NCBI GenBank assembly: GCA_043816185.1
Contig: JBDRIG010000093.1
Span: 1-23,127, forward strand
Source: Elusimicrobiota bacterium
GTDB lineage: Bacteria; Elusimicrobiota; UBA8919
Reading direction: 5' to 3'
Length of the DNA stretch: 23,127 nucleotides
Position numbers and translations under genes: made by a program. The first letter of the stretch is position 1; every line of letters begins with the position of its first letter. Shown in pieces: positions 3-18,178 of this stretch. The notes below the pieces were generated by a model that was not told the origin of the DNA, searched no databases, and saw only the letters and a program-made list of their open reading frames with translations.

Positions 3-3000
3 TTTACTGCAACTGCAACGCTAACAAATAAATTGGACAATACTGCGATAAGTAATAAAACAGTAAATTTTTCCTTTGGTGCCGAAAGTGAAGAAGCAAC
101 AACCAATTCAATTGGCGTCGCAATAGCAACATTCACCGCACCAATTTCATCAGGAACATATTCTTACAGTGTAAAATTTAACGAGAACGATACCGATGCA
201 ACATATTCTTCAAGTAATGTTATGGGTAGTGTATCTGTCTTGCAACGTCCAACAACAATTCAAATAGACAATATTACAACATTGACGTTAGATGTATTTA
301 CTGCTACTGCTACATTAAGAGATAAATTAAACAATACTGCGATAAGTAATAAAACAGTAAATTTTTACTTTGAAGGAAATGTTTTTAGCACAACGACTAA
401 TTCATTTGGCGTCGCAATATCAACATTCACCGCACCAACATCATCAGGAACGTATGTTTACACCGCGACATTTGATGGTGATGAAACTTATGCGGAAAGT
501 AGTGAAGCAAAATCTGTCTTCGTTCTTCCACGAGAAACCATGCTTGTAGTCTATGATGTTTTAGATGCAGTTACTGAAAAACCGTTTATTGCAAAAAGTA
601 TATTGATGGATACTGACGCTACAGAAAATACGCCTATCGTGGGAAGAACTGTAAAGTTCACGTTTGAAACGGTAAATATAGCATATGGCGTAACGAATGA
701 ATTAGGTATAGCAACCGTTACATTTGTGACACCGCCTACACCCAAAATATACACCTATACTGCTGAATTTTTAGGTGATTCTACCTATCAAGCCAGTAAT
801 GGTGAGGCTACGGTTAGAGCTGGATTATTAACCACATTGACAACCAGCGACGTGAGTACGTTTGCATCGGAACCGTTTAATGTTCAAGCAAAACTTGTCG
901 ATGTGTATGGTGTAAAATTGAACAATAAACCTATAGTTTTCACATTTTTAAATCAAGTACCGTCTGTATTGTTCGTAACCGCAAAAACCAACGATGTTGG
1001 CATCGCAACAGCAACATTTACAGCACCTATTTCCTCTGGAACCCATATTTATACTGCAGAATTTTATGGAGATACTCTCTATGCACCAAGTAATAGTAGC
1101 TCTACAATAAATATTCAACTTAGACCCACCTCCATACTTACATATATTACAAATACTATTGCAAATAGTTCTTTCACGGCTAAAATAGAGTTAAAAGATA
1201 CTCGTTCTAATACTGGAATAGCCAATAAAAACATTAATTTTGTGTTTAATGGTTCAACAAAAACGGTTAAAACAGGTTCTATAACCACAGGCGTAGCAGA
1301 GGCAGAGTTCTTCGCAGTTTCCAATGGTTCATATACCTACACTGCAAATTTTGATGGTGACGATACTTATACAAGCACTGGCTCGACAGGTGATGTAATC
1401 GTTTCTTTACGTTTTACGAGTATGAACGTTTTTGATGTAACTATCCCTGCAAGTAGTTCGTTTACTGCTAAAATAGAACTGAAAGACCCTAGTTCTGATG
1501 AAAATATGCAGGGTAAAATGATAAAATTTGTATTTAATAGTGGACAACCAGAATATGTCGTAACTGGTACCAATAGCATCGCACAAAAAGTTTTTTTAGC
1601 ACCTATGTCATCGGGAACATATACATATACTGCTGAATTTGGTGGGGATGTTGTTTATTCGTCGAGTAGCATTACGGGAATAGTTTCAGTTGGTCAGCGT
1701 TCAACATCTATTTTAATAAGTAATATATCAGCAAGAACCAATACTCCATTTGATATAGAAGCAAAATTGATAGACAACAATACACAAAGCGGTGTTGAAA
1801 ACAAGAACTTGGCTTTTATATTTCAAGAAATTTCTACAACCAGTTTTACTAACAGTATAGGCATTTCTACTGCGACATTTGTTGCTATATCTACGGGGAC
1901 AAATGTTTATTCTGTATCTTTCGTCGGTGATAGTACATATAGCAGTAGTGCTAATAGTGCTAATGTTATCGTTGGCTATAAATCTACTATTTTACTTTCA
2001 GACGAAGCAACTGTTCGGATAAAAGATAATTTTATCGGTAAATCTATTTTGGTTGATTCTACAGGAGCTCCAATATTAAGCAAGGTTATATCGTTTAAAT
2101 TCAACAATGGCGATGTCTACGCAGGAACAACAAACGATTTAGGTATTGCCACCGCAACATTGCCTACCTCTATACTAGAATCCACAGGAACATATAATTA
2201 TTTGTCAAAGTTTGACGGTGATGTTTCTTATGTTGGTGGCGAAGATCTGAAAAAAGTTTATGTGGTTTTGCGTGAAACTAAATTAGAAACTGAGAAAATT
2301 GTTTCTGCACCAAACAAGGCTTTTGGCGTACAGGTAAAATTGTGCGATAATGTTTTTGGTAGCCCAGCATTTAATGATCCAATAGATTCAAAGTCAATAA
2401 CATTTGAATTTTACGACGGTATTTCTACCCACACAAAAGTTGCCACAACTAATTATTTAGGAATAGCAGCCACGTCCTTCACAGCACTAAGTTCTACAGG
2501 AACCTATAACTATGTAGCAAAATTTGAAGGTAATAATATTTATGAAAAAATTGGTAGCAATAATTTGGTTCAGGTTTTGATGGCCACAGGTGAAGGCAAG
2601 GTTGAAACCATTTTGTCTGCCGAAGATATAAGAACCTTTGTTAATGAGGTATTTACATCTACAGCAACATTGGTTTCCTCGGGGATACCAGTTTCATGTA
2701 AAATAATAACATTCGAATTTTACAACGGTGTTAATAATTTAGCAAGGACGACTGCTACAACTAATAATTATGGTGTGGCAACAGCAACGTTTACTGCTCT
2801 TATCTCCGCAGAAACAACATATACAGCGTCTTTTGCTGACGACGAAATTTATTCTTCAAGTAGCGATACGGCTAAAATTTCGATATTAAAACGTCCAACG
2901 ATTTTAATACCGATAGACATAGCAGTATACTCATTAGAAATTTTTACCGCTACATCTACGTTAAAAGATACTCTAACCTCTCAACCGCTTTATAATAAAA

Positions 3001-4553
3001 AAATCACATTTGAATTTTTTGATGGCATATCAACAAATACAAAAACAACTGATACAAGTAATTCGGGCGTAGCAAATGTTGATTTTATATCGCCATCATT
3101 CCCAGGACGCTATAGTTACATAGTAAGATTTAGCGGAAACGACGAAGATAGCGTATATGCGGGGACTATTGCGGAGGGTTCTATTATCGTCAATTCCAAA
3201 GGCGAACAACCATATTTAATATTGAATGATATTGTAGTTGGTCAAGAAAAGGTTTTCTATCCTACCGCAACTTTTACATTTAAGGGACTACCTGTTAAAA
3301 GTAAGTTGGTAACATTTGAATTTGAAAATAAAATTATAAAATCAACTACTAACGTAGATGGTATTGCGACAACATCATTTGTTGCGCCAACTTTTGCGGG
3401 TAATTATAAATGCACGGCAACTTTTGCGGGTGATAAAGATTATATTGGAGTTAAATCTACAGCAACAGTTTCGGTAGTAGAAATTATTGTTGTCGAAGAT
3501 CCATATTATATAAAAATAGCAACTATAACAAAAAATAAAATAACTTTTTCTTGGACGAAAGTAATAAAATATAAAGAGAAAATTAAAAATTATGTTGTTG
3601 AAAAAACAAATAGTCTTGAAGGTAGATGGGAAAAAGTATATTCTGTAGACAAGAACTCTGCTTTAACTTTTACAGATATAAGGATGGAAGGAGAAACAGT
3701 TTATTATCGCGTAAAAACTATCTTTTGTGATGGGCAGGAAAGTAAGGGATTGGCGATAATTGAAGTTCCTAATTATGTAGAAGAAATAGAAAACATTGGC
3801 TATATTTATACCAGTGAAGATAGAAATGCAAAAGTTGAACTGCCAAATAAGATTATGGATGACATACAAGAACAAACTGTTAATCAATTACCAATTAGGT
3901 TAGTAATTTCCAAAGAAGAAAATTCTAATTTTTTATTCGTGTATGATATAAAAATTGTTGATTCGGATGGTAGGGCATTGGATGATAAAATACTTAAAAA
4001 TACACCGAAAGGGATTAGAATTAGTGTTTCTTACAAGAATGTTTTAGGTGTAATTTCTGCCGCTGGTTCTTCCAAAGAGTCTGTTGTCGGTTCTTCCGGA
4101 AAGCCTGCCGCTGGTTTAAATGGGCAACAAGTTGCAATCTACTGGTTCAATAGCGTTGAATGGATAAAATTAGGTGGCACGAACAATATATTCTCAAGCG
4201 AATCTTATATATATTCTCGTACAATAGGAAAATTTGGATTAAAAGCTGGTTCATTAGCGAAAGAGTTCACTTTAACAGAAGTAGTTCCAAAAATATTCAC
4301 ACCAGAAGAATCTTCCGATGTAATAAACAAGGTCAGATTTATATTCGAGAATCCGAAAAATAGTGAAGTTACGATAAAAATATTTGATATAACAGGAGCA
4401 ATAATAAAAAGAAATCTTGAAAGGGAATCAGATAATATTCTTTGCTGGGATGGGCGTGATATAAACAGCGATATTGTTAGAGGTGGAATATATATTTACC
4501 AGATTGAGTCCGAGGAAAAAATTATTACAGGAACAATAGTAGTAGCTAAATAA
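3..4553 (+). CDS. Giant surface/adhesin-like protein, 5'-truncated by window edge: ~12 tandem ~98-aa bacterial Ig-like repeats, FN3-like domain, linker domain, and a C-terminal FlgD-Ig/T9SS type-B-like (gliding motility-associated) sorting domain
   Basis: The frame is open from nt 3 (FTATATLTNKLDN...), so the TTG at 33 is not the true start. Recurring unit: 'F.ATATL.D.....I.NKT..F.F......TTN..G.AT.TF.AP..SGTY.YTA.F.GD..Y..S'. FN3-like 'KITFSWTK...YVVEK....W.....FTD....GETVYYRV'. C-terminus 'VVPKIFTP...RFIFENP...VTIKIFDITG...WDGRD...GGIYIYQI...GTIVVAK*'. Confidence 0.85.
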   Translation, partial: FTATATLTNKLDNTAISNKTVNFSFGAESEEATTNSIGVAIATFTAPISSGTYSYSVKFNENDTDATYSSSNVMGSVSVLQRPTTIQIDNITTLTLDVFTATATLRDKLNNTAISNKTVNFYFEGNVFSTTTNSFGVAISTFTAPTSSGTYVYTATFDGDETYAESSEAKSVFVLPRETMLVVYDVLDAVTEKPFIAKSILMDTDATENTPIVGRTVKFTFETVNIAYGVTNELGIATVTFVTPPTPKIYTYTAEFLGDSTYQASNGEATVRAGLLTTLTTSDVSTFASEPFNVQAKLVDVYGVKLNNKPIVFTFLNQVPSVLFVTAKTNDVGIATATFTAPISSGTHIYTAEFYGDTLYAPSNSSSTINIQLRPTSILTYITNTIANSSFTAKIELKDTRSNTGIANKNINFVFNGSTKTVKTGSITTGVAEAEFFAVSNGSYTYTANFDGDDTYTSTGSTGDVIVSLRFTSMNVFDVTIPASSSFTAKIELKDPSSDENMQGKMIKFVFNSGQPEYVVTGTNSIAQKVFLAPMSSGTYTYTAEFGGDVVYSSSSITGIVSVGQRSTSILISNISARTNTPFDIEAKLIDNNTQSGVENKNLAFIFQEISTTSFTNSIGISTATFVAISTGTNVYSVSFVGDSTYSSSANSANVIVGYKSTILLSDEATVRIKDNFIGKSILVDSTGAPILSKVISFKFNNGDVYAGTTNDLGIATATLPTSILESTGTYNYLSKFDGDVSYVGGEDLKKVYVVLRETKLETEKIVSAPNKAFGVQVKLCDNVFGSPAFNDPIDSKSITFEFYDGISTHTKVATTNYLGIAATSFTALSSTGTYNYVAKFEGNNIYEKIGSNNLVQVLMATGEGKVETILSAEDIRTFVNEVFTSTATLVSSGIPVSCKIITFEFYNGVNNLARTTATTNNYGVATATFTALISAETTYTASFADDEIYSSSSDTAKISILKRPTILIPIDIAVYSLEIFTATSTLKDTLTSQPLYNKKITFEFFDGISTNTKTTDTSNSGVANVDFISPSFPGRYSYIVRFSGNDEDSVYAGTIAEGSIIVNSKGEQPYLILNDIVVGQEKVFYPTATFTFKGLPVKSKLVTFEFENKIIKSTTNVDGIATTSFVAPTFAGNYKCTATFAGDKDYIGVKSTATVSVVEIIVVEDPYYIKIATITKNKITFSWTKVIKYKEKIKNYVVEKTNSLEGRWEKVYSVDKNSALTFTDIRMEGETVYYRVKTIFCDGQESKGLAIIEVPNYVEEIENIGYIYTSEDRNAKVELPNKIMDDIQEQTVNQLPIRLVISKEENSNFLFVYDIKIVDSDGRALDDKILKNTPKGIRISVSYKNVLGVISAAGSSKESVVGSSGKPAAGLNGQQVAIYWFNSVEWIKLGGTNNIFSSESYIYSRTIGKFGLKAGSLAKEFTLTEVVPKIFTPEESSDVINKVRFIFENPKNSEVTIKIFDITGAIIKRNLERESDNILCWDGRDINSDIVRGGIYIYQIESEEKIITGTIVVAK
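38..455 (+). repeat. Near-identical intragenic DNA repeat, 294-bp period (first two Ig-like units)
   Basis: caatactgcgataagtaataaaacagtaaatttt at 38 and 332; ttggcgtcgcaata(g/t)caacattcaccgcaccaa..tcatcaggaac.tat at 112 and 406. Confidence 0.9.
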
Positions 4554-4602
4554 TTCTATACGAGTGTGTAATGCCTTTTTAATTGTCTCGAGATATAAAA
4601 TT

Positions 4603-6270
4603 ATGAAAAAAATTATTTTTATTACGCTTTCACTATCCGCTATCTACTGTCTAATAGCAACCAATTCATACTCTGCTTTTGAAGACATGGATGGTGGGCC
4701 AAGGGTTAAATCTATGGCTGGTGCATTTGTTGCACAAAGCGACGATGTCAATAGTATATTTTATAATCCAGCAGGAATAATAGGAATAAAAAGAAAAGAA
4801 ATATTGTTAACATATGAAAATTTATTAATTGGTCTATCGGACAATAGCAATATCGCTCATAATTTAATAGTATTTGGTTCGCCGATTAAATATAAAACAC
4901 AATATTTGGGCAATGCGTGTATCGGATATAACAATTTGTCGTTAAATAATTTATATAATGAAAATTTAATATTGTTTAGTTGTGCACATAGGTTTAAAAA
5001 TAATCTATCTGCCTTGTCTGCTGGGTTGAATTTTGGTATTATGACGGTAAGTTATAGTGAAGATGAATATACAAAAATCAATCCTGTGTTTGAAAATGTG
5101 TATCGGAAGACAGGATTTAATTTAGATATAGGTGCAATTTACAACTGGAAAAATATAAATTTTGGTATTTCAATAATGAATCTCAATGAGCCAGATTTAG
5201 GATTAAAATACTCTAACAAAGTTAGTAGAAAAATAAATTTTGGAGTGAGCGTTAAGCAAGAAGCATCTATATGGAATGCGGAAATTACGTCGATGAATAA
5301 AGACCTCAAACTTAAAATAGGTACAGAAAGATTGTTGCTGCCAGAATTATTAAAACAAAAAATTCTTTTACGTACTGGAATAAATATTGGTTCTCGTGAA
5401 TATAGAAATATAAGTGTTGGCACTGGATTTAAGGATAAAAATTATTTAATAGATTATTCGTTTATATACCCGCTTGGTGGAATATCAGGTACAATTGGTT
5501 CACATCAATTAGGGCTAACCTATCGATGGGGTGAATCAATCGAAGAAGAAGCAAAAGTGGAATTATCAAAATTACTAGAAGCATCAGGATATATTGAAAA
5601 AGCGAGATTTGCTGAAAAACTCTTGCCATCCGAACCAGTTGAAATTTCCCAACAAGAACGTAAACAGGCACAAGAATTAATAGCGTCTGCAAAAAAAGAA
5701 ATCGATGCTGGGTATTACAAAAATGCACTTGAAAAACTTAAAGCAGCACGGCAAATACTTAAAGATGCTCCTGCAGTTAACGAATTGATTATTAAAATTG
5801 AACCTATAGCACAAATAATTCCTGAAATAATCGCTGTTGATAAAAAAGATTCATTATTGAGAAAAGGTATAGATAAATATTTAGCCAACAATGGAGAGAG
5901 TGCGCTAAATTTCATGATTTATGCTTCACAATTATGGTCTCAAGATGAAAATATTAAGCTATTAAAAGATATTATTATGGAAAAATTCTCTGAAACTAGT
6001 CCTACTGTAGAGAGAGTTCTTCCAGGGATAACCATAGTCGATCAACTACTACAAGATGTGTTAGGCTTGATTCGCTCTAGCAGATTTGTTCAGGCAGTAG
6101 TTGTATGCGAAAAAATCTTAGAGGTAGAACCTGATAATGTAATTGCATTAACAAGGCAAGGTTCTGCATACTGGGCTATGAATAAAAAAGAAATGGCTAA
6201 AAAAATATGGGAAAAAGTATTAAAACTTGATCCCAATAACAAAGAAATTATCGAATTTTTTAAAAAATAA
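4603..6270 (+). CDS. PorP/SprF-like (T9SS-type) outer-membrane beta-barrel with C-terminal TPR domain
   Basis: Likely start is ATG 4603 (MKKIIFITL, signal peptide). N-terminal 'GPRVKSMAGAFVAQSDDVNSIFYNPAG', alternating beta-strand pattern, 'NLNEPDLG', and barrel end 'DYSFIYPLGGISGTIGSHQLGLTYRWG' resembling the PorP/SprF GSHE motif. Helical TPRs follow ('CEKILEVEPDN...AKKIWEKVLKLDPNN'). Confidence 0.7.
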   Translation: MKKIIFITLSLSAIYCLIATNSYSAFEDMDGGPRVKSMAGAFVAQSDDVNSIFYNPAGIIGIKRKEILLTYENLLIGLSDNSNIAHNLIVFGSPIKYKTQYLGNACIGYNNLSLNNLYNENLILFSCAHRFKNNLSALSAGLNFGIMTVSYSEDEYTKINPVFENVYRKTGFNLDIGAIYNWKNINFGISIMNLNEPDLGLKYSNKVSRKINFGVSVKQEASIWNAEITSMNKDLKLKIGTERLLLPELLKQKILLRTGINIGSREYRNISVGTGFKDKNYLIDYSFIYPLGGISGTIGSHQLGLTYRWGESIEEEAKVELSKLLEASGYIEKARFAEKLLPSEPVEISQQERKQAQELIASAKKEIDAGYYKNALEKLKAARQILKDAPAVNELIIKIEPIAQIIPEIIAVDKKDSLLRKGIDKYLANNGESALNFMIYASQLWSQDENIKLLKDIIMEKFSETSPTVERVLPGITIVDQLLQDVLGLIRSSRFVQAVVVCEKILEVEPDNVIALTRQGSAYWAMNKKEMAKKIWEKVLKLDPNNKEIIEFFKK

Positions 6271-6280
6271 TAGTAAAAAA

Positions 6281-6970
6281 ATGGAAAAAACAAATAAAAA
6301 AGTACTTCAATCGCCGCTAATATGGTTAACTGTATATTCTGATTGGATAACCAATATGACGTTGTTTTTCATTCTTTTGTTTTACGTTGCTTTTACTGCT
6401 ATGGACAAAGGATTGAGAGAAGATGAGATGTATAAACTTATGAAAGGAATGGTTTCAACGCTTAAAAAGCAAACTTTCAAAGAAGAATTAAACGAAACAA
6501 TATCAAAAATTACAGAAATTAAAGAGGTATCTGGTATAACTATTGCTGAGAAAGAAATGAAAGTGACATTATCAGAAACAATTCTTTTTGATTCTGGAAA
6601 TGCCGTATTGAAAGAGAATGGTAAAAAAATTTTAATCCAAGTAATGCAGAATTTTAAGGGTTTGCAATATCCAATATTAATTGAAGGACATAGTTGTAAT
6701 CTTCCCTTAAAACAAAAAATATCACCAAAGCTTAAAAAATGGGAGTTGGCTATTCTTCGTTCAGCTGGATCAGGTCCCTATAGGGATAATTGGGAACTTT
6801 CTACCACAAGATCAATCAAAATTGTTGAATTTTTGACGCATGAAAAAATTATTGAACCGAAGAGAATTAGGGTTGTTGCTTGTGGACCCTCAGAACCACT
6901 CTTCCCGAATGATGGCGAGGAAAATCGCAAAAAAAATCGTAGAATAGAAATAAAAATAATAAAAGAATGA
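6281..6970 (+). CDS. MotB-like stator protein 1 (N-terminal TM with conserved Asp, OmpA-like C-terminal domain)
   Basis: Likely start is ATG 6281. TM 'WLTVYSDWITNMTLFFILLFY' matches the MotB W..TY.D..TLL..FF.LL pattern. OmpA-like domain 'ILFDSGNAVLK...IEGHSCN...DNWELSTTR...KNRRIEI'. Confidence 0.85.
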   Translation: MEKTNKKVLQSPLIWLTVYSDWITNMTLFFILLFYVAFTAMDKGLREDEMYKLMKGMVSTLKKQTFKEELNETISKITEIKEVSGITIAEKEMKVTLSETILFDSGNAVLKENGKKILIQVMQNFKGLQYPILIEGHSCNLPLKQKISPKLKKWELAILRSAGSGPYRDNWELSTTRSIKIVEFLTHEKIIEPKRIRVVACGPSEPLFPNDGEENRKKNRRIEIKIIKE

Positions 6971-7557
6971 ACAGAAAAGATGTTAATAATTTAGCAAGCC
7001 AATCTTACCAACTGCCATATATTTCTTTAATGACCGTCCTGTGTATATACTTTATAAGCCTATATGTATATTTCAATAAGTTAGCTGCTAAAAACACAAA
7101 ACAAAAAAGTGAAATTACACAGGAAATATTTGATGAAATTGAAGAAATAAGTAAAGATGTGGCTAATGTAGAGATTACCCAAGATAAAATAAAAATAACA
7201 CTCCCGTCAGATATAGTATTTAATTTAGGCGATAGTAGTATAAAAAAAGAATTAGAACCAGTATTGAAAAAACTGGCTAAGACATTTAAACTCCTACCAG
7301 AAGAATATCTAATAATATTTGAAGGACATACCGATAATTCTCCCGTCTGGTACGGTGGAAACTTTTTTTCCAATTGGGAATTATCTGCATATAGAGCATT
7401 AAGCTTGCAATATTTTTTTGTCGACGAAGGTATTAAGCCAGAAAAAATGCGTATTGTAGGGTATGGCGAATTCAAATTATTGTTTCAAAATGATACCGAA
7501 GAGCATAAAACAGCTAATAGAAGAGTGGAAATTATATTGAAAAAAAGGGGAAAATAA
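6967..7557 (+). CDS. MotB-like protein 2 (TM lacking the conserved Asp, canonical OmpA/MotB peptidoglycan-binding domain)
   Basis: ATGA overlap with the upstream gene. TM 'YQLPYISLMTVLCIYFISLY'. Domain 'FEGHTDNSP...NWELSAYRA...VGYGEF...NRRVEI'. Confidence 0.85.
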   Translation: MNRKDVNNLASQSYQLPYISLMTVLCIYFISLYVYFNKLAAKNTKQKSEITQEIFDEIEEISKDVANVEITQDKIKITLPSDIVFNLGDSSIKKELEPVLKKLAKTFKLLPEEYLIIFEGHTDNSPVWYGGNFFSNWELSAYRALSLQYFFVDEGIKPEKMRIVGYGEFKLLFQNDTEEHKTANRRVEIILKKRGK

Positions 7558-8291
7558 TGATTGCTGATATAATGAGTATAATTTTTTTCTTTTCATCGGT
7601 TTATTTTTCTTTCCCTGACGGCGGAACAATGTTGGTAAAATTTGGTAAAGAAAATAATAATGAGATTGCGGATGTGATTAAAATGGATATGTTAAAAGGA
7701 GAAAAAGTATACAATGTTCTGTCGTTATTAGGATGGAAACCACGTATTGATTGGTTAATTTTAACCCCCTACGATAATAAATTGGATGATAAAATGTATC
7801 ACGTTTTTAACAACTTTAATATTGGGGAAATTTACTTCACTTTTGATTATCGAAAATTTAGTAAACGTTTTGAAATATTGAATGAAGATATTGGTAAAAT
7901 ACTTCTTCAAATATCGTTAAACAATTATCGAGTTTTTAATCTTAAGGAAAAGGAAACAATAGATCTTTTACAATCAATCTCGGGCGTTAAATTCTATAAA
8001 ATATTACCTATTGAAAAATTACAAGGCCTAAAAGAAAGCCAGCATATATGTTTTATCGTAGAGTATAATCAAATAAAGATTTTAATTACAAGCGAGTTAA
8101 CGAAAGAAGAGCAAAATTATATTATTACAAATTTTGCAGATAAAATTAAATCACAAATATTTTACCATCCAGCGAATATCGAACCAGAGTTTTTTTACGC
8201 AGTTAATGCGTCTTGGAAAATTCAATACGGCGAGCATAGAGCATTATTAATTAATGGTGAAAAGATTTTTGAGAGGAGGGATGCTAAATGA
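7557..8291 (+). CDS. Hypothetical protein, degenerate ComEC/Rec2-like metallo-beta-lactamase fold
   Basis: TAATG coupling. 'RIDWLILTPYDNK' and 'FIVEYNQIKILITSEL' resemble ComEC-MBL 'IDLLILTHPHxDH' and 'LxYGxxSFLFTGD' without the His/Asp ligands. Confidence 0.5.
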   Translation: MIADIMSIIFFFSSVYFSFPDGGTMLVKFGKENNNEIADVIKMDMLKGEKVYNVLSLLGWKPRIDWLILTPYDNKLDDKMYHVFNNFNIGEIYFTFDYRKFSKRFEILNEDIGKILLQISLNNYRVFNLKEKETIDLLQSISGVKFYKILPIEKLQGLKESQHICFIVEYNQIKILITSELTKEEQNYIITNFADKIKSQIFYHPANIEPEFFYAVNASWKIQYGEHRALLINGEKIFERRDAK

Positions 8292-8737
8292 AAAACAAAT
8301 CAAAAAGAAGTTTACTGATGTTGATTAAATCTAATATTCCAGGAATTAGAGAATATATTTCTCTATCTTTTATAGTTTTAATCATACTGTTATTTTTAGT
8401 GATATTCAGCAGTTATTTGTTTATTAAAAGTCTTCAAATAGGTCAGTATGCTGACACTATAATTAGTAGAAATGCGTATGTAATAATAATTTTTTGGATA
8501 GTATCCACAATAATTTTGTTTCTAATTTTTGTAAGGAAAATATTGGAAATGAGCGAGCATATTGTAGGCCCTACAAGAAGAATAGAACGAGAATTGGATA
8601 AAATACTTAATGGTGAAAAAAATATTCATATTGTTCTAAGAAGAAGCGATATCTTGTTTGATGTAGTAAAAAAAATCAATCAAGTATTAGATATGTTCGA
8701 AAAAAAATATGATAAAGATAGCAATGAAAATTTATAA
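8288..8737 (+). CDS. Small two-TM membrane protein with a C-terminal HAMP-like domain and no output domain
   Basis: SD gaggagg and ATGA overlap. Two hydrophobic segments, then 'SEHIVGPTRRIERELDKILNGE...LRRSDILFDVVKKINQVL'. Confidence 0.65.
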   Translation: MKNKSKRSLLMLIKSNIPGIREYISLSFIVLIILLFLVIFSSYLFIKSLQIGQYADTIISRNAYVIIIFWIVSTIILFLIFVRKILEMSEHIVGPTRRIERELDKILNGEKNIHIVLRRSDILFDVVKKINQVLDMFEKKYDKDSNENL

Positions 8738-10895
8738 AATCTGTATCTTGTTGTATCGAAAACCGACTTCGATACCGATTAAATCCGCGTCTATGTTTGG
8801 AGCGGAGCGTTTATGCTCATACGTCTTGACTATTTTTACATTGTTATTATTAAATGGATTTGTTACAGCAGTAGACAATAAAATGTTAATTATGCTCTCT
8901 TCGTCTGGATATAATGGTGGTAGCGGATTTATTGACGAAGCAAGAAGTGTTGCTACAGATTCGCAAGATAATATTATTGTTGTTGGTAAAAGCAACGACA
9001 ATCTTTCTATTGTAAAATATAACAAAAGTTTAATGCAGATTAATTCCAAAATAGAAATTACAACAGGAACGGGACGTGGTGTCACGACGGATAAACTTGA
9101 TAACATTATCGTTATAAGTGAAAAAAGTAATATTCAAGGAATTATAAGTTATTACACTATAAAATATGATTCAGGCTTAAACGTTATTTCTTCTACTACC
9201 TACAGTCAGGTTAGTATTAACAATATGCCTTCTGCGGTAGCGATAGACAACGAAGATAATATAATTGTTACGGGTTATAGTTCTGACGGAGCAACGCTGA
9301 GCTGGGTTACAATAAAATACGATAAAGATTTGAGGGAAATTTCCTCAGTGATTTACGACAGTGGTTGGGATGATAGAGCTACAAGTTTAGCAATAGATAG
9401 CCAGAACAATATAATTGTTTCAGGTTATAGTTCTGACGGAGCAACGCTGAATTGGGTTACAAAAAAGTATGACAAAAATCTAAATGAAATATTTTCAGTA
9501 ATTTATGACAGTGGCGGAATTGACATATCTAATGCTGTGGCAATAGATAGCCAGGACAATATAATTGTTTCGGGCTATAGTTTTGACGGAGCAACGCTGA
9601 ATTGGGTTACAAAAAAGTATGATAAAGATTTAAAAGAAATTTCCTCAGTAATTTATGACAGTGGCGGAATTGACATATCTAATGCTGTGGTAATAGATAG
9701 TAGAGATAATATAAGTGTTACAGGATACACAGACAATGAAGGTACATATGATTATCACACAATAAAATATGACAAAGATCTAAATAAAATATCTTCAGGA
9801 ACTTACAATGGGGGTGGAATCGACATATCTAATGCCGCAGCAATAGATAGTCAAGACAATATAATTGTTTCAGGTAAGAGTGCAGATGATTTTTTTACTA
9901 TAAAATATCTTGGGTCACCACAATTAACATCAGCATCAACTGGATATCAAGGGGAAACAATAGGTGTAATAATCGATGGAAGGAATTTCTATAACGGAGC
10001 AGTTGTTAAATTTGGCCATCAAGGAATTATTGTTTCTTCTTCTATGGAAATAATGTCCAACAGAATTTTCGCAAATGTAACTTTTTCTTCTTCCGTGCCA
10101 TTAGGAAAACATAGCATAGATGTTTCAAATATAGACGGTGAAACAACAACAAAATCAAACATTATTGAAGTGATGCGAAGAAAATTAATAAATTCGTTAA
10201 ACGATGAGGAAATCAATTCAGTGTTCGATACAGGAGAGATAGATTTATATATACCTGCTGGAACTTTTCTACAAGATTCCACGATGACAATTTCTTCAGT
10301 CGATAATGCTTTGCTGCAAAATGAAGGAATGTATACTTTTAGTGATGTATGTGTAAGAATTAATATTGAGCCACAAATTGTTTCTCAAAAAGAATTCATT
10401 TTAACCTTAAAATATCGCGATGAATACGTTGCTGGGTTAGACAAAAACCGTCTCGTTATTGTTTGGTATAGTTCTACAACCTTGAGTTGGTATGATATTC
10501 CATCAACTCAAAATATTGCCACTAACGAAGTTAGTTGTAAAACTAAAAACACTAATACCATATTTGCCTTAGCGACACTCCCACCTCTATACACTAATTT
10601 AAGTAATGTAAAGGCCTACCCTAATCCATATAAACCTGGCAGTAATGGGGATTTTGACAATACATCATTGGGTGAAGGGATGGTATTTTCAAATCTTACA
10701 CCAGAGTTTAATATAAAAATTTTTAATATTGCGGGGGAACTTGTTTTTGAATATGAAGGAGAATCAGATGTTTATGGAAATTATTTGTGGAATACAAAAA
10801 ATAATCAAGGTGCAAAATTACACAGTGGATTGTATATATATTTCATAAAAAATGATACACAACAAAAAAAAGGAAAAGTGTCTATAATTAGATGA
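8709..10895 (+). CDS. Secreted beta-propeller (SBBP/delta-60-like repeat) protein with IPT/TIG-like domain and T9SS type-A-like C-terminal sorting domain
   Basis: Start is 8709 or 8724. About 7 copies of 'AVAIDSQDNIIVSGYS......W.T.KYD.DL.EI...YDSGG.D'. IPT-like 'PQLTSASTGYQGETIGVIIDGRNF'. C-terminus 'VKAYPNPYKP...FSNL...IKIFNIAGELV...WNTKN...SGLYIYFI...KGKVSIIR*'. Confidence 0.8.
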   Translation: MIKIAMKIYKICILLYRKPTSIPIKSASMFGAERLCSYVLTIFTLLLLNGFVTAVDNKMLIMLSSSGYNGGSGFIDEARSVATDSQDNIIVVGKSNDNLSIVKYNKSLMQINSKIEITTGTGRGVTTDKLDNIIVISEKSNIQGIISYYTIKYDSGLNVISSTTYSQVSINNMPSAVAIDNEDNIIVTGYSSDGATLSWVTIKYDKDLREISSVIYDSGWDDRATSLAIDSQNNIIVSGYSSDGATLNWVTKKYDKNLNEIFSVIYDSGGIDISNAVAIDSQDNIIVSGYSFDGATLNWVTKKYDKDLKEISSVIYDSGGIDISNAVVIDSRDNISVTGYTDNEGTYDYHTIKYDKDLNKISSGTYNGGGIDISNAAAIDSQDNIIVSGKSADDFFTIKYLGSPQLTSASTGYQGETIGVIIDGRNFYNGAVVKFGHQGIIVSSSMEIMSNRIFANVTFSSSVPLGKHSIDVSNIDGETTTKSNIIEVMRRKLINSLNDEEINSVFDTGEIDLYIPAGTFLQDSTMTISSVDNALLQNEGMYTFSDVCVRINIEPQIVSQKEFILTLKYRDEYVAGLDKNRLVIVWYSSTTLSWYDIPSTQNIATNEVSCKTKNTNTIFALATLPPLYTNLSNVKAYPNPYKPGSNGDFDNTSLGEGMVFSNLTPEFNIKIFNIAGELVFEYEGESDVYGNYLWNTKNNQGAKLHSGLYIYFIKNDTQQKKGKVSIIR
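9240..9880 (+). repeat. 150-bp (50-codon) intragenic tandem repeat encoding propeller blades
   Basis: g(c/t)(g/a)ataga...(g/a)a(c/t)aatataa starts recur at 9240, 9390, 9540, 9690 and 9840; the 9390 and 9540 units are nearly identical. Confidence 0.9.
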
Positions 10896-12004
10896 AAAAT
10901 TATAATTTCCCAGTCGCTATTAGCTTAATCTTTTTTTTAATTACAAGTGCTGTTTTTTCGGCACAGTTTTTAAAAATAGGTATAGGGGCAAGACCCGTCG
11001 GTATGGGAGAAGCATTTACTGGATTATCAGACGATAGTTATGCTATTATATACAATCCCTCAGGATTATCGAAGATTAGTTATTTAGAACAAACTTTTAT
11101 GCACGGTATTTGGTTGGAAAATATAGGTATAAATTGGGCATCTGTCGTTCATCGTGTAACAAAGGTTGATACTATTGGCGTTGGTATAGAATATTTAACC
11201 AGTGGCGACATAGAAACGACTAATAAATATGGTAACAGTTTGGGTTTTTATGATATGTCAGACTTGATGTGTATATTATCTTATGCTAAAAAATTTAGAA
11301 ACATTTCAGTAGGTATAAATATTAAAACTTTTCAAGAAAAAATAGAAAACGAAAAAGCAAATGGAATGGCATTGGATATTGGCATGTTATTTAATTTGCA
11401 TAAATTACAATTAGGTATTGCTGCTCGCAATATTGGCAGTGGAATTAAATTTAGGGCAGTATCTGCACCGTTGCCATTGAATATACGATTAGGTGGGGCA
11501 TATAAAATTTTAGATAAGTTTTTAACTACTACGGATATCAGTTTTTATTCAGACAATAATAAACTTAACCTTCATCTTGGTGGAGAATATACTTATTATA
11601 AAATAAAAAATTTCATTTTTAATACTAGATTGGGATTTAATACAACCACCATTGGTTGTTTAGGTTTTTTATCAGGTTTATCTGCTGGTTTTGGGGTATA
11701 TCACAGTAATACTTGCATTGATTATGTATGGCAACCGTATGACTTTTTTGGTTCAACACATAGAATAAGTTTGACATGGAAATTTGATTCTAAAATAAAG
11801 AAAATAGAAATTGTAGGCAGAAAAACTGAATCTGAAATAAAAAATGTAGAAGATATGTATAAAGATGTAATTCAGTGGTATCAAAAAAAGATTTTAGTAG
11901 AAAATCTTTCAAAAAATGAACAGATAATAATTCTAAAAAGGATTATAGAAAAATTTGAACCCTTAGGCGTGGATGTTTCCGAAGTAAAAAGTGAATTAAA
12001 ATAG
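10892..12004 (+). CDS. PorV-like (UPF0164/FadL superfamily) outer-membrane beta-barrel with short helical C-terminal extension
   Basis: ATGA overlap with the upstream CTD protein. Signal peptide, then 'AQFLKIGIGARPVGMGEAFTGLSDDSYAIIYNPSGL', typical of PorV. Barrel end 'FGSTHRISLTWKF'. Confidence 0.8.
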   Translation: MKNYNFPVAISLIFFLITSAVFSAQFLKIGIGARPVGMGEAFTGLSDDSYAIIYNPSGLSKISYLEQTFMHGIWLENIGINWASVVHRVTKVDTIGVGIEYLTSGDIETTNKYGNSLGFYDMSDLMCILSYAKKFRNISVGINIKTFQEKIENEKANGMALDIGMLFNLHKLQLGIAARNIGSGIKFRAVSAPLPLNIRLGGAYKILDKFLTTTDISFYSDNNKLNLHLGGEYTYYKIKNFIFNTRLGFNTTTIGCLGFLSGLSAGFGVYHSNTCIDYVWQPYDFFGSTHRISLTWKFDSKIKKIEIVGRKTESEIKNVEDMYKDVIQWYQKKILVENLSKNEQIIILKRIIEKFEPLGVDVSEVKSELK

Positions 12005-12016
12005 ACTTCGTCGTAA

Positions 12017-12099
12017 GATTACGCAGATTGATAAAAAAGATTATATAAATACACCGTCGCGGCTTAATCTACATAATTCTGTTTATAATCTGTGAAATC
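12017..12099. repeat. Degenerate intergenic inverted repeat of the GATTACRCAGAT...ATCTGYGTAATC type
   Basis: gattacgcagatt (12017-12029) pairs with aatctgtgaaatc (12087-12099), with degenerate inner copies (gattatataaat, aatctacataat). Confidence 0.55.
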
Positions 12100-12129
12100 A
12101 TAATTTCTGTTAGTTTTTCAACAGAAATT

Positions 12130-12789
12130 ATGATAAATGGTATGATTTATATTCTTTTTATTTTCATTAATTTGGTATATGCCGAAAAACTTATCGATTC
12201 AGGAATTACAAAATACCTCGAGGGAGATCTTGTGTCAGCGGCTTCAACGTGGAATCAAGTTTTAATTAATGAACCTGATAATTTAGTTCTAAAAGAATTA
12301 GTAGGTAACTGCGATATTACTCTTGGTAAAGAAGCACTATTTAATAAGGATTATCAAACAGCATCTTTACATTTTAAGAATGCATGTAGCGTGTTGTCTG
12401 AAAATAAATGCAATTATTTAAGATCACTTATTTTTCTAACGGAGATAGAAAATAATTTTCCAACGGGGGATGAAATTCTTTATAAAGATATTTTAGAGTT
12501 AGATATAAAAAACGAAAAATGGAAAAATTTTGATCTAATATTTGCCAATAAAAAAATTGTTCAAACGACTACAAAATTCACTCAGCCAATGACACAGGAA
12601 AAATTTATTATACATTATATTTCTTACAACGAAACCTTTGAAACAATTGCGGAAAAATATTATAAAAATCATAATCTTTGGGAAAAGATATGGAAAAACA
12701 ATCCACACATTGAAAATCCACACAGACTTTTTGTGGGAGATAAGATTTTAGTTCCTATAGATCCAAATAATTCAGGAGGTGTAAAATGA
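12130..12789 (+). CDS. Exported TPR + LysM peptidoglycan-binding protein
   Basis: Signal-like N-terminus (…LVYA-E). TPR-like 'GITKYLEGDLVSAASTWNQVLINEPDN'. C-terminal LysM 'HYISYNETFETIAEKYYKNHNLWEKIWKNNPHIENPHRLFVGDKILVP'. Confidence 0.8.
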   Translation: MINGMIYILFIFINLVYAEKLIDSGITKYLEGDLVSAASTWNQVLINEPDNLVLKELVGNCDITLGKEALFNKDYQTASLHFKNACSVLSENKCNYLRSLIFLTEIENNFPTGDEILYKDILELDIKNEKWKNFDLIFANKKIVQTTTKFTQPMTQEKFIIHYISYNETFETIAEKYYKNHNLWEKIWKNNPHIENPHRLFVGDKILVPIDPNNSGGVK

Positions 12790-14165
12790 AAGTTGTTAAA
12801 TTTTTATCTATTCTATCTATTTTTTGTTTTGTTCTTGCTACTAATGTTCGGTCTTTAGATAAGACAGTAGCGGAGGTAGGTATTGAAGAAAGATTAAGGC
12901 AAACACTTACTTCGTACTTAGGGACACAAAATGTTATTGTAATAGTAAAAATCAAATTGTTTGGAAAAGAAGTTGAAGAAAAAACGGTTGGCAAAAAAAT
13001 TAGACGTTGGAACGAATTAGAAGAAATAATTTTACCAGGAGTTCCAGCAGCAACCGATATGATTAAAAAAACACCACTTGAAAAAGAAAAGTATCAAGGA
13101 ATAAAAAGTATATCTGTATCGGTTTTTATTGGGGAAAGTTTTCATGCGAAAACCATAGATGGAGCTAAAAAACTAATTTCAGATATGCTAAATCTAAATT
13201 TTAATACAGGTGATATACTAACTATCGAGAATTATAATGTACCAAAAAATTTCTCGAAATTATTTAAAATAAGTGAAATGATACCAATATTCGTAGCAGT
13301 TGTTTTACCTTTATTTTTTCTTGGAATTTTTTTTATAAGTAGATTTTTTATTAAAATAAACAGATTTTCTAAGGATTTAATCGAGGGTATATCTAAACAA
13401 AAAGTTGCAAGTGGAGTAGAAGCGATTGAAAGTATATCCGCAGGTATTGATAAAGCAGAAAAGTTACCATCACAACTTCGTATTGAAACTGGGGTATCGC
13501 AGGAGATCCAACAATTGTTTAGGTTTGTCAACGAAGATAATATTGAAGACATTAGAAAGATATTAAGTGAAGAATCGTCCGAAGCAATATACAAGATTTT
13601 GCATTATCTACCCACAAAGTTGGCATTTAGTGTTATTCCGGAAGAAAAGCAAAAAGAAGTTATCAAACACTTTATGAAAAAAGAATATACAACGCCCGAA
13701 GAAATAAAACAAATTGAAAATAAAATACGAATAAAACTTCAATATAATATTGGAGGAGCAGCAAAATTAGCTAAATTACTTCAAGGCAGTGGTAAAATTT
13801 CACAAGAAAATATAGTTGACATTTTAAAAAAGGGGGCACCTGAATTTGCATCTGAAGTGGAGGATAAATTATTTAAGTTTGAATATATTCTTGAATATGA
13901 TGAACTAAATTTAAAAAGGATATTTAGATCTGTCGGAGTTGATATTTTTGCACGATGTCTAAAAGATTGTTCTGAGGAAGTTATTAAAGAGTTTCATAAA
14001 AAATTGGGTCAAACAATAACTAATTTGATAAACGCGAAAATAAAAATTTTACCATCATTTGAAAATGAGGAAACAGACGCTAAATCCATATTGATGTTAA
14101 GCATAAAGAATTTAATGAAGAAAGAATTGATTCCAATATCAGAAAAGATTAAAAAAATGTTATAA
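12786..14165 (+). CDS. FliF-like ring-domain / TM / FliG-like (middle + C-terminal) fusion protein
   Basis: SD ggaggt and ATGA overlap. Periplasmic part 'EERLRQTLTSYLGTQNVIVIVKI...LPGVP...IKSISVSVFI...KKLISDMLNLNFNTGDILTIE' resembles the FliF C-terminal ring domain. TM at ~13278-13350. FliG-like 'ILSEESSEAIYKILHYLP', 'IGGAAKLAKLL', 'PEFASEVEDKLFKFEYILEYDELNLKRIFRSV'. Confidence 0.75.
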   Translation: MKVVKFLSILSIFCFVLATNVRSLDKTVAEVGIEERLRQTLTSYLGTQNVIVIVKIKLFGKEVEEKTVGKKIRRWNELEEIILPGVPAATDMIKKTPLEKEKYQGIKSISVSVFIGESFHAKTIDGAKKLISDMLNLNFNTGDILTIENYNVPKNFSKLFKISEMIPIFVAVVLPLFFLGIFFISRFFIKINRFSKDLIEGISKQKVASGVEAIESISAGIDKAEKLPSQLRIETGVSQEIQQLFRFVNEDNIEDIRKILSEESSEAIYKILHYLPTKLAFSVIPEEKQKEVIKHFMKKEYTTPEEIKQIENKIRIKLQYNIGGAAKLAKLLQGSGKISQENIVDILKKGAPEFASEVEDKLFKFEYILEYDELNLKRIFRSVGVDIFARCLKDCSEEVIKEFHKKLGQTITNLINAKIKILPSFENEETDAKSILMLSIKNLMKKELIPISEKIKKML

Positions 14166-14232
14166 CAAGAATGAAAAGATAGGATCAAGAATGAAGAAAT
14201 GGACAGACGATTTTTAGCGTTTTGTTGTTATT

Positions 14233-14349
14233 GCGACTGTGTCACAATGAGCTAAAAAGTTGCATTTTTATAGAAGATAGCAACTGATGGTAAAATATGG
14301 TACTGCAATTCAACACTAGATGGTAAAAGATGGATTGCGACACAGTCTG
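14233..14349. mobile_element. MITE copy 1 (~117 bp, non-autonomous, TIR GAGACTGTGTCRCAAT-like)
   Basis: TIRs gactgtgtcacaat (14235-14248) and attgcgacacagtc (14334-14347). The 113-bp core matches the reverse complement of 22916-23028 with 6 mismatches by manual alignment. Confidence 0.85.
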
Positions 14350-14567
14350 AATGACCAAAAGTAGAGCTATAACACAGTCTGATTGCGAACATTTTTCAGT
14401 AAAAACCATAGGATTCTGCTGATTGGCCTACCTATTCTAATCCTCGTTTTATTATCTCAAGCGGAAAACCAAGCCGTGCATCGCAATTTTCTCTCTCGCC
14501 AGGTGCAAGATGAAACAAAATCTTTTTGCTATCAAAGGTTATCACTACCTCGTTAAGTTCAGTTTGC

Positions 14568-14791
14568 CATTGTGGGCGACCTTGTCCGTCATTGTGGGCG
14601 AAGCGAAGCAATCTCGTCTTGTCCGTCGTGCCCCGCCCCCTGCCTGTCATCTCGACTGAAAGGAGAGATCTCTCTGTTTCGACTAGAAGAGATCCCTCGG
14701 TCGCTACGCTTCCTTGGGATGACAAGCGGGATTGCTACGGCTTCCTTCGGAAACCACGCAATAACCAAAAGTGGAGTTGTGACACAGTCTC
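14568..14791. repeat. Composite palindromic repeat: outer CGTCATTG...GCAATCTC / GGGATTGC...CAATAAC element containing a nested TGTCATC...GATGACA element, ending in a MITE-type TIR
   Basis: Outer arms at 14587-14615 and 14728-14765. Inner 80-bp imperfect palindrome at 14645-14724. TIR ttgtgacacagtctc at 14777-14791. GC-rich relative to the surroundings. Confidence 0.8.
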
Positions 14792-17167: not shown

Positions 17168-18178
17168 GTGACACATTTATATATTTATACGAAAAATAAG
17201 ATTGGTGATGTGCTTATTTTACACAGAAAAACTTTATCATTCTATCGCAATATCACCATTGCTACTTTGTGTCGCCACATTGCCACCGTTGTTTTATTAT
17301 TTATCGCCTTATCATCTTATCGTCCTACCACATGTCTCTACGGTGCCACAATTTCAAATCAGCGTGTTGGATGTGTGGATATGAATCGCATTATGGAGGA
17401 ATATCCTGAAGCAAAAAAAATTAAGGATGAATTATCGGCAGACCTCAGTATGCGTAAAAAAAATATAAAAAATTTTGAAGCGCAGATTGACTTAGTAGAA
17501 TTGGAAATTAAGCAGATGGAAGAGCAATTTCAAAAATATAACGAAGAACAAAAAAAAATCAAAGAAAATCAAAATAAGATACCCATAGTTACAACGACAG
17601 ATATATCATCTTCTACATGCACGGACATTGTTGACGCTGCTGTTGAATCTTCTAAAGAAGATATCGTCGTTAAATCTTCATCTGAGGCCATAACTCAAAT
17701 ATCGTCTTCTACAGGCACGGACATTGTTGATGCTGCCGTTGAACCTTCTGAAGAAGATGTTGTTAGGTCTTCATCTGAGACTATAGCTCAAACACTATCT
17801 TCTACAGAAAACACCGTTGTCGAATCTTCCATAGAAGACATTGCTGTTGAGTCTTCCGAAGAAGATGCTGTTGTTAAGCCTTCGTCTAAGTTTATAGCTC
17901 AAATATCATCTCCGACATTTACAATTGAGGACATAGAGGCAAAAGAAATCGCATTAGAAGAACAAAAAAGCGATCTTGAAAAATATATTATCGTCACAAA
18001 ACAGGAAGAGAAAACAATAAACAGCAAAGTAAAAAAAAAGATAATGGGAAAAATTTATGACATTATAAAAGAGACCTGTGATGCGGAGGGGCTTACTGTA
18101 TTGGTCGATTCTTGCAATCTTATTTATGGTGAGGACGCACAAGATATAACCGAAAAAGTTCTAAAGAAGTTGAAATAA
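17168..18178 (+). CDS. skp: Skp/OmpH periplasmic chaperone with a large acidic Ser/Thr-rich repeat insertion
   Basis: SD aggag plus GTG, directly after bamA. 'RVGCVDMNRIMEEYPEAKK', coiled coil, C-terminal 'IYDIIKETCDAEGLTVLVD...LIYGEDAQDITEKVLKKLK'. Confidence 0.85.
   Translation: MTHLYIYTKNKIGDVLILHRKTLSFYRNITIATLCRHIATVVLLFIALSSYRPTTCLYGATISNQRVGCVDMNRIMEEYPEAKKIKDELSADLSMRKKNIKNFEAQIDLVELEIKQMEEQFQKYNEEQKKIKENQNKIPIVTTTDISSSTCTDIVDAAVESSKEDIVVKSSSEAITQISSSTGTDIVDAAVEPSEEDVVRSSSETIAQTLSSTENTVVESSIEDIAVESSEEDAVVKPSSKFIAQISSPTFTIEDIEAKEIALEEQKSDLEKYIIVTKQEEKTINSKVKKKIMGKIYDIIKETCDAEGLTVLVDSCNLIYGEDAQDITEKVLKKLK
17603..17920 (+). repeat. Intragenic ~96-bp (31-32 aa) imperfect tandem repeats in skp
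   Basis: ISSSTCTDIVDAAVESSKEDIVVKSSSEAITQ (17603) / ISSSTGTDIVDAAVEPSEEDVVRSSSETIAQ (17699), plus a degenerate third unit. Confidence 0.85.

Follow-up and report, generated by a model that had tools for sequence, protein, structure and literature searches.

In the 23,127-nt window analysed here, which is contig C93 (JBDRIG010000093.1) of an Elusimicrobiota genome (G000; 1.44 Mb, 112 contigs, 94.3% complete), a run of ten plus-strand open reading frames (ORFs) encodes parts of a flagellar-type ion motor together with outer-membrane barrels and surface proteins like those known from type IX secretion systems (T9SS). We lean towards the reading that this run belongs to a conserved envelope machine which couples the motor to one giant surface adhesin.

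Motor, barrel and cargo genes as a unit

The run opens with the C-terminal 1,516 amino acids (aa) of a giant Ig-repeat protein (3..4553; nine Big_3_5 matches), ending in a weak C-terminal domain (CTD) match (TIGR04183, 19.9 bits, under the cut-off of 23). It is followed by a barrel of the PorV/PorP fold with C-terminal tetratricopeptide repeats (TPR) (4564..6270, probably starting at the ATG at 4621; PorP_SprF 43.5 bits, over cut-off, TPR matches and a structural model), by MotB1 (6227..6970) and MotB2 (6967..7557), by two small ORFs described at the end, and by a CTD protein with delta-60/SBBP beta-propeller repeats (8709..10895; CHU_C 30.1 bits, over cut-off). The last three genes encode a PorV-family barrel (10892..12004; NF033709 (PorV_fam) 155.7 bits, cut-off 90), a TPR-LysM protein with a LysM match and an N-terminal hydrophobic segment (12130..12789), and the rotor fusion (12786..14165), in which a signal peptide, FliF RBM3 (ring-building motif 3) and one transmembrane (TM) segment precede FliG_M and FliG_C. 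Stop and start codons overlap at 6967 (4 nt), 7557 (1 nt), 8288 (4 nt), 10892 (4 nt) and 12786 (4 nt), and by 29 nt at 8709 when counted from the first ATG; the sole intergenic gap is 125 nt, 5′ of 12130. The first-pass annotation had described a same-strand run with such overlaps, two CTD surface proteins, PorP/SprF- and PorV-like barrels, two MotB-like proteins and a TPR-LysM protein, and the family matches bear this out.

The unit continues beyond the window. Contig C24 (reverse strand) ends in the same 141 nt with which the window begins, an exact overlap found nowhere else in the assembly, and an open frame of 3,409 aa on C24 runs into this join. The joined giant gene has a minimum of 4,879 codons without internal stop, with DUF2341 domains in the N-terminal part on C24, and a 254-aa MotA is encoded on C24, outside the window, 75 nt 5′ of the giant gene start. 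The absence of motA was therefore rejected, since the gene sits on the overlapping contig. A single ORF in G062, and likewise in G211, matches residues 7-2272 of the C24 half at one end and residues 2-1516 of the window half at the other (37-40% identity); these single frames reach 5,969 aa and 6,824 aa, and because they are longer, collapsed repeats at the join may hide extra adhesin length. From the contig join, the unit therefore reads motA, giant CTD protein, barrel-TPR, motB1, motB2, two passenger ORFs, propeller-CTD, PorV, TPR-LysM and rotor. Directly 5′ of motA, on the same strand, lies a 1,768-aa TamB-like gene (C24:11203-16509) that was not seen at other rotor loci.

Linkage was determined in two partly overlapping sets of loci. 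For the rotor set, the best 81 non-self matches among 280 were taken; one was dropped because its gene starts at a contig edge, leaving 80 loci. Of the 72 loci with enough room upstream (2.5 kb or more), 35 have a same-strand PorV-family gene within 4 kb upstream, and 33 of these 35 also had a CTD gene; motA was the next gene after the rotor in 53/73 loci, and two motB genes occurred in 42/62. PorV was found in 40/80 rotor loci and a homologue of the TPR tail in 58/80, compared with 2/18 and 0/18 control windows, a contrast to be read with the kinship of the genomes, which are non-independent, and with controls that are few, not length-matched and on average shorter than the rotor loci (247 kb in total). 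A barrel adjoins the rotor in at least five rotor clades.

The second set came from a reciprocal scan with the barrel-TPR protein, which gave 21 loci, 18 of them orthologous and 3 matching by the barrel only. The rotor was the next gene in 15 of the 16 orthologous loci with downstream sequence. The full eight-gene set was visible in 10/18 orthologous loci, seven were cut by contig ends, and one had no copy of the last three genes within 10 kb. Two gene orders occur among the orthologous loci and the window shows a third. The TPR-LysM protein, the propeller-CTD protein and the PorV barrel of the following gene are conserved members of the set in these loci; an earlier conclusion that TPR-LysM was not conserved arose from windows that ended too early, and was overturned by longer related loci. 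Hence the linkage of motor genes to CTD and barrel genes, on which the first-pass annotation had staked its proposal, recurs in relatives.

Rotor, stator and the proposed transmission of force

The rotor model, built from 99 sequences (predicted local distance difference test, pLDDT, 84), begins with a signal helix, followed by a single alpha-beta-beta-alpha-beta domain that is interrupted near residues 60-105 by a disordered insertion, then by a TM segment (166-184), a linker and FliG M/C. Residues 19-153 superpose on FliF RBM3 (8z5v, Z 13.8, root-mean-square deviation (rmsd) 2.1, 95 aligned residues; 6scn, Z 13.7), with Z 10.2 for SpoIIIAG and PrgK and at most 8.8 for unrelated folds, and a Foldseek search returned 13 FliG chains at the top and then FliF. 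FliG_C was matched in 99/99 family members and YscJ_FliF_C in 61/99; Pfam misses the FliF part on the window's own protein. The model shows a single RBM, YscJ_FliF is not among the families listed for the 99 members, and FliG_N gave no match on the window protein. Thus the FliF-FliG fusion of the first-pass annotation is real, in a shortened form consisting of RBM3, one TM segment and FliG M/C, without RBM1/RBM2. Full HMMER was needed to recover the family, giving 754 matches with the rotor as query versus one by word-index search.

Genomes carry one to five rotor paralogues. The window rotor clusters with genomes of four other families and not with the paralogues of its own family, which suggests transfer or differential loss. 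G229 (L041:3420-7151) and P0034 have proteins of 66% identity in which an internal signal-peptide-like segment joins the rotor in frame to the propeller-CTD protein, possibly forming a polyprotein cut by signal peptidase. Two distant matches (P0097 and P0121) are full-length natural FliF-FliG fusions with RBM1-3 and FliG, unlike the shortened rotor. G000 itself has a second rotor module (C2:14458-20196; L008:9459-15197). Its 634-aa FliF-FliG-like fusion has kept R281/D288/E289 and is accompanied by MotA, only one MotB (with Asp), a TPR protein and a protein of 357 aa that is probably in the outer membrane; neither CTD nor PorV genes adjoin the module.

Inside the collar insertion, an LPGVP motif (rotor 83-87) is the most conserved outer feature of the protein, with L83 in 96, P84 in 97, G85 in 96, V86 in 85 and P87 in 89 of the 99 members. 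In Salmonella FliF, loops P309-P331 leave the beta-collar, bind the rod and pass torque, according to the sections of PMC11528121 used here. By its position in the collar, LPGVP may be the counterpart of this rod-binding loop. The pattern PG[VA] had no match in two canonical FliF-containing proteins, so that position, and not sequence homology, speaks for the correspondence.

On the stator side, MotA, which matches 9lu9_A at E 5.5e-40, is a full flagellar-type protein; MotB1 combines a MotB_plug/TM region, in which the conserved Asp is present, with an OmpA-like domain for peptidoglycan binding. MotB2 is MotB-like and likewise has an OmpA-like domain. In the 48 loci with two MotB genes, Asp is present in every first copy that can be read (43 of 43).

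From these parts, folds and conserved linkages, a chain of steps can be proposed, each of them conjectural. Signal peptides would take the giant Ig-repeat and propeller proteins across the inner membrane, and an SprA homologue encoded elsewhere in the genome would take them across the outer one. Each cargo would then stay docked on its own barrel with its CTD uncut. The rotor fusion would form an inner-membrane ring with RBM3 outside and FliG inside, and MotA5 with MotB1/MotB2, their OmpA-like domains held on peptidoglycan, would drive this ring in one direction; searches turned up neither a FliM/N nor a CheW switch. In place of a rod, the LPGVP collar loops would grip the TPR domain of the barrel, which is presumably periplasmic, and torque or tension would pass to the barrel and adhesin while TPR-LysM, proposed as a peptidoglycan anchor or bushing, would fix the assembly to the wall. 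The proposed role of the 4564 barrel is thus both to carry the giant protein and to receive the motor force. The output would be a rotating, moving or pulling adhesin, serving to move over surfaces or to handle a surface or a partner cell. In its most specific version, which we advance tentatively, a rod-less rotor ring and a MotA5-MotB1-MotB2 stator with a single ion-binding Asp would turn or haul a 0.5-MDa T9SS-exported adhesin through the TPR tail, giving a type-IX-style motility without GldLM that is widespread in free-living Elusimicrobiota.

The TPR-loop pair was chosen for complex prediction because nothing accompanies the rotor more often than TPR, and no other outer feature of the rotor is as conserved as the loop. 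The predicted complex of TPR 345-568 with rotor 66-102 scored 0.41, versus 0.01 for the best control, and the runs agreed in at least 65% of contacts, with a partner pLDDT of about 46. The score mark used was reached by 116/157 solved and 2/215 mismatched pairs, of which 18 solved pairs and both mismatches lay at or below 0.60. The predicted contact is therefore taken as a lead and not a demonstration, giving the loop-TPR grip weak support.

Several observations, in addition to the non-independence of the loci, weigh against this reading. About half of the rotor loci have no upstream PorV-family gene; in 11 an unrelated 640-aa protein is encoded upstream, and in 5 an unrelated cytoplasmic-looking gene. 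MotB2 has Ser where Bacillus subtilis MotB (6ysl_A) has the ion-binding Asp, and the second MotB copy, readable in 47 loci, has Asp in 21, Asn in 21, Gly in 3, Ala in 1 and Ser in 1. A rotating link would have to pass through peptidoglycan without a rod. The heaviest point concerns the charges at the rotor-stator interface. Position numbers R90, E98, R281 and D288/D289 were transferred via alignments of rotor and MotA, and we assume that they denote equivalent positions in the proteins studied here. The charge pairs of the flagellar motor are R90/D288-D289 and E98/R281 in the part of PMC12505986 drawn on here. The FliG part of the window rotor has T410, A417 and K418 at the R281, D288 and D289 positions, the window MotA has Tyr at R90 and Pro at E98, and four of the closest relatives are also without the 288/289 acids. 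Across the family, with the first MotA of each locus surveyed, the R281-E98 pair is mostly lost (Gly in 62/81 at R281, Gln in 39/62 at E98); the R90 equivalent is Lys or Arg in 54/62 MotA proteins and an acid is found at FliG 288/289 in 74/81 rotors. For the clade of the window, the chief argument against plain torque generation is this paired charge loss. Because rotor and stator changed together, it may equally reflect a remodelled interface.

The 640-aa protein belongs to no known family (L040:12685-14604 and 10 related loci) and ends in a barrel-type Phe, with Atlas look-alikes in Bacteroidota and Cloacimonadota. In its large clade, a free TPR gene lies downstream of the rotor.

Secretion parts, distribution and competing explanations

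The first-pass annotation placed a T9SS-like system outside Bacteroidota, and this is supported by the barrels, the CTDs and an SprA homologue. The model of the 4564 protein (pLDDT 87) has 14 strands at residues 78-322 and TPR helices at 363-567. In Foldseek, its lowest rmsd values were to PorV (8gl6_F, 3.8 Å; 6h3i_F, 4.4 Å; TM 0.64 by target for PorV), and the FadL family ranks above PorV by E-value. G000 has 13 PorV-family matches, 5 of them over cut-off, and 11 C-terminal CTD matches, 9 of which have a barrel gene directly downstream; only 2 of the 11 CTD genes, both in the window operon, adjoin a motor. TIGR04183 stays under cut-off for both window CTD proteins, CHU_C being over cut-off for the 8709 protein. 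A profile of 16 CTDs matched PorZ best among PDB entries (4e-6), followed by PorU (8e-6) and FlgD (9e-5); PorZ and PorU keep their CTDs uncut, as stated in the consulted portion of PMC11285876. No match to a PorU-type C25 peptidase was found in G000, with a silent control, and CTDs are therefore probably left uncut, with the cargo docked on its own barrel as SprB on SprF.

SprA is absent from the window, as the first-pass annotation had noted, and is present elsewhere in the genome: a 1,743-aa homologue with a weak CBM_11 match is encoded on contig C112 (37089-42320; L014), with no motor gene beside it. Its profile matched 6h3i_A at E 4e-28, where a single-sequence PDB search had returned nothing. 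It matched TIGR04189 at E 6e-39 (133 bits, under the cut-off of 200), is 22% identical over 1,262 aa to a protein above that cut-off, and has SprA_N clusters as its nearest in the Atlas; a Pfam SprA_N match did not recur in hmmscan. CTDs end open frames of 10,763-18,913 aa in G028:C2, G062:C6, G211:C35 and G004:C61, so that this SprA may have very large proteins among its cargo. CTD-only mini-proteins of 115-145 aa lie between giant cargo and barrel-TPR genes in L023 (12182-12577) and many related loci; the window operon has none, and G000 has one at C50:33984-34400.

Flagellar markers were sought in G000 (94% complete). FlhA and flagellin gave no match, with controls positive in 4/14 genomes in each case, nor did FliMN_C or CheW, whose controls were positive. 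The idea of a MotAB-FliF/FliG motor repurposed without a flagellum thus stands, and with these four markers as probes a complete flagellar system that these genes might serve was not found. GldL, GldM and GldN had no match in G000, and no control genome carries them; GldL and GldM were likewise matched in 0/201 phylum genomes, the control being silent. For a canonical GldLM-powered T9SS, the other system that would have explained the genes, the result is therefore negative within the reach of a silent control.

The host is Elusimicrobiota-like, as proposed, since both the barrel and a protein of the genome have close homologues that carry Elusimicrobiota names. In a survey of 301 phylum genomes, each at least 80% complete, the rotor was present in 121, MotB_plug in 131, SprA in 278 and FlhA in 7. 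Two families differ sharply: the rotor occurs in 1/70 genomes of f4 and 1/92 of f7, and SprA in 50/70 and 90/92. Both appear, from their small genomes, to be host-associated lineages. Among 23 f4/f7 genomes tested, PorV-family genes were present in 23 and CTD proteins in 20. Secretion parts thus exist without the motor, because these families keep SprA, PorV and CTD proteins and almost never the rotor. As to the range beyond the phylum, cluster look-ups named Elusimicrobiota for 2/20 proteins and 'bacterium' for 1, and one Firestonebacteria locus in the barrel-TPR scan has a barrel and a CTD gene with no motor gene.

This distribution bears on an alternative that we judge unlikely, namely that the motor is a dedicated export energiser, replacing GldLM for very large cargo by pulling a 5,000-aa protein out of SprA or by freeing the loaded barrel. 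The missing GldL/GldM matches (control silent) fit it, as do the giant CTD proteins adjoining motor loci and the 21-33 CTD matches in five motor-bearing genomes, versus 0-8 in the 23 motor-less ones. However, f4 and f7 keep SprA, PorV and CTD proteins without the rotor, one CTD frame in G030 reaching 3,196 aa, the sprA gene of G000 stands on another contig away from any motor gene, and pulling needs no rotor ring, ExbBD-type motors being available in G000. A motor that is an obligate energiser of SprA is weakened by the f4/f7 gene content, and general secretion appears to be independent of the rotor motor. The first-pass annotation had offered the motor as the energy module of an export or surface-motility machine; the export half is weakened by f4/f7 and by the CTD genes of G000, of which only 2/11 adjoin a motor, and the half that names surface motility or a dedicated machine fits better.

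The interface data suggest another alternative, also with a low probability in our estimate, in which ring and stator do not turn. Comparable to PorE-PorP-PG1035, they would form a static trans-envelope anchor or load sensor between the barrel on one side and peptidoglycan and inner membrane on the other, perhaps gating ions under load. Loss of the torque charges on both partners in the clade of the window, a MotB2 without Asp and three peptidoglycan-binding domains (two OmpA, one LysM) are what such an anchor would predict, and there is a precedent for a TPR/OmpA protein joined to a PorP barrel and CTD cargo in the parts of PMC9143113 and PMC12204202 used here. By contrast, the Asp of MotB1 in all 43 readable pairs, the intact MotA and FliG_C in 99/99 rotors speak against an anchor, the K/R90-acid pair is kept in most clades, and FliG would be superfluous for anchoring. 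We retain the motor coupled to an adhesin as the preferred explanation.

Chance neighbourhood, or decaying flagellar relics among surface-protein genes, draws on the plentiful PorV and CTD genes of G000 (13 and 11) and on the two passenger ORFs inside the run, and is very improbable and largely refuted by the locus counts and set conservation, given intact frames, set membership kept despite shuffled gene order, one to five paralogues in a genome, two relatives that fuse rotor and cargo in frame, and low rates in the controls. A flagellar relic was separately rejected on the lack of flagellar markers, FlhA in 7/301 genomes and the full set kept in relatives.

Relation to known systems and other features of the window

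The system shares with the flagellar motor core the RBM3 fold, FliG M/C, a flagellar-type MotA and a MotB with plug and OmpA-like domain. It differs in the natural fusion without RBM1/2 or FliG_N, in two different MotB proteins of which one is without Asp, in altered torque charges, and in linkage to outer-membrane barrels instead of a rod; the FlhA, flagellin, FliM/N and CheW of a flagellum were not found in G000. Compared with Bacteroidota T9SS and Flavobacterium gliding, it has in common an SprA homologue, PorV-fold barrels, Ig-fold CTDs, a barrel gene after the cargo gene (9/11 in G000) and a giant adhesin near a 5:2-type ion motor. Here, however, the motor is MotAB with a FliF-FliG ring, the barrel is fused to TPR, the CTDs are nearest to the uncut PorZ/PorU type, GldL/M/N and a PorU-type peptidase were not found (controls silent), and the phylum lies outside the Fibrobacteres-Chlorobi-Bacteroidetes (FCB) group, beyond whose phyla T9SS genes are said to be absent in the passages of PMC11285876 at hand.

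In Porphyromonas gingivalis, PorE-PorP-PG1035 likewise holds CTD cargo on its own barrel, tied to a periplasmic partner with TPR and OmpA domains. PorE is a single lipoprotein with no motor, whereas here TPR lies within the barrel protein and the OmpA domains in stator subunits. Myxococcus AglRQS-Glt resembles the system as a flagellum-free surface machine with one MotA-like and two MotB-like genes (PMC9389320, as far as covered here). AglRQS proteins, generic transporters of a TolQR-like kind, move along the cell, whereas here MotA is flagellar-type, MotB wall-anchored and a FliF-FliG rotor present.

Many motAB/fliG homologues in non-flagellated Elusimicrobiota, with a role called unclear, are described in the sections of bioRxiv 10.1101/2022.07.08.499144 that we used, and those sections do not mention the rotor fusion, SprA, PorV or CTD genes. 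Parts of two further papers provided context (10.1101/2024.09.23.614571; 10.1101/2021.01.07.425829). No published description of this machine emerged from full-text searches, which largely leave out subscription journals and do not extend to supplements. The system belongs to neither parent and combines flagellar motor parts with T9SS carrier parts. Added here are the eight-gene set with shuffled order, motA across the contig break, families with SprA and no motor, the one-Asp MotB pair, the paired torque-charge loss and the loop-TPR lead.

If the motor indeed drives the adhesin, nature would here have merged the two bacterial motility machines that have been studied best. A FliF-FliG rotor would be working with neither rod nor hook nor export gate, a case relevant to the origin of flagellar modules. 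Such a motor would also explain why motAB and fliG occur in many copies in Elusimicrobiota without flagella. SprA, PorV and CTD cargo are placed across a phylum said to be without T9SS genes, apparently without GldLM; with SprA in 278/301 genomes and no GldL/M match, the energy source of SprA becomes a testable question, notably in the motor-less families. Moreover, the natural one-Asp MotB pair offers a direct test of the two-site alternating model for 5:2 motors.

The two remaining ORFs of the run, one of 244 aa (7557..8291), with neither a family nor a structural match, and one of 149 aa with two TM segments (8288..8737), have no counterpart among the related loci compared and are probably passengers. 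Promoter and terminator counts were at chance level. An ordinary bamA-skp run lies 3′ of the operon from 14876; its Skp-like gene (17168-18178) has a long acidic repeated insert. The following ORFs read as putative lpx genes, among them one of 438 aa (19369-20685) that resembles an LpxC-FabZ fusion. Between operon and bamA-skp run, at 14215-14360 and 14600-14790, are copies of an interspersed repeat of about 140 nt that occurs genome-wide (119 blastn segments) and also breaks many contigs of G000.

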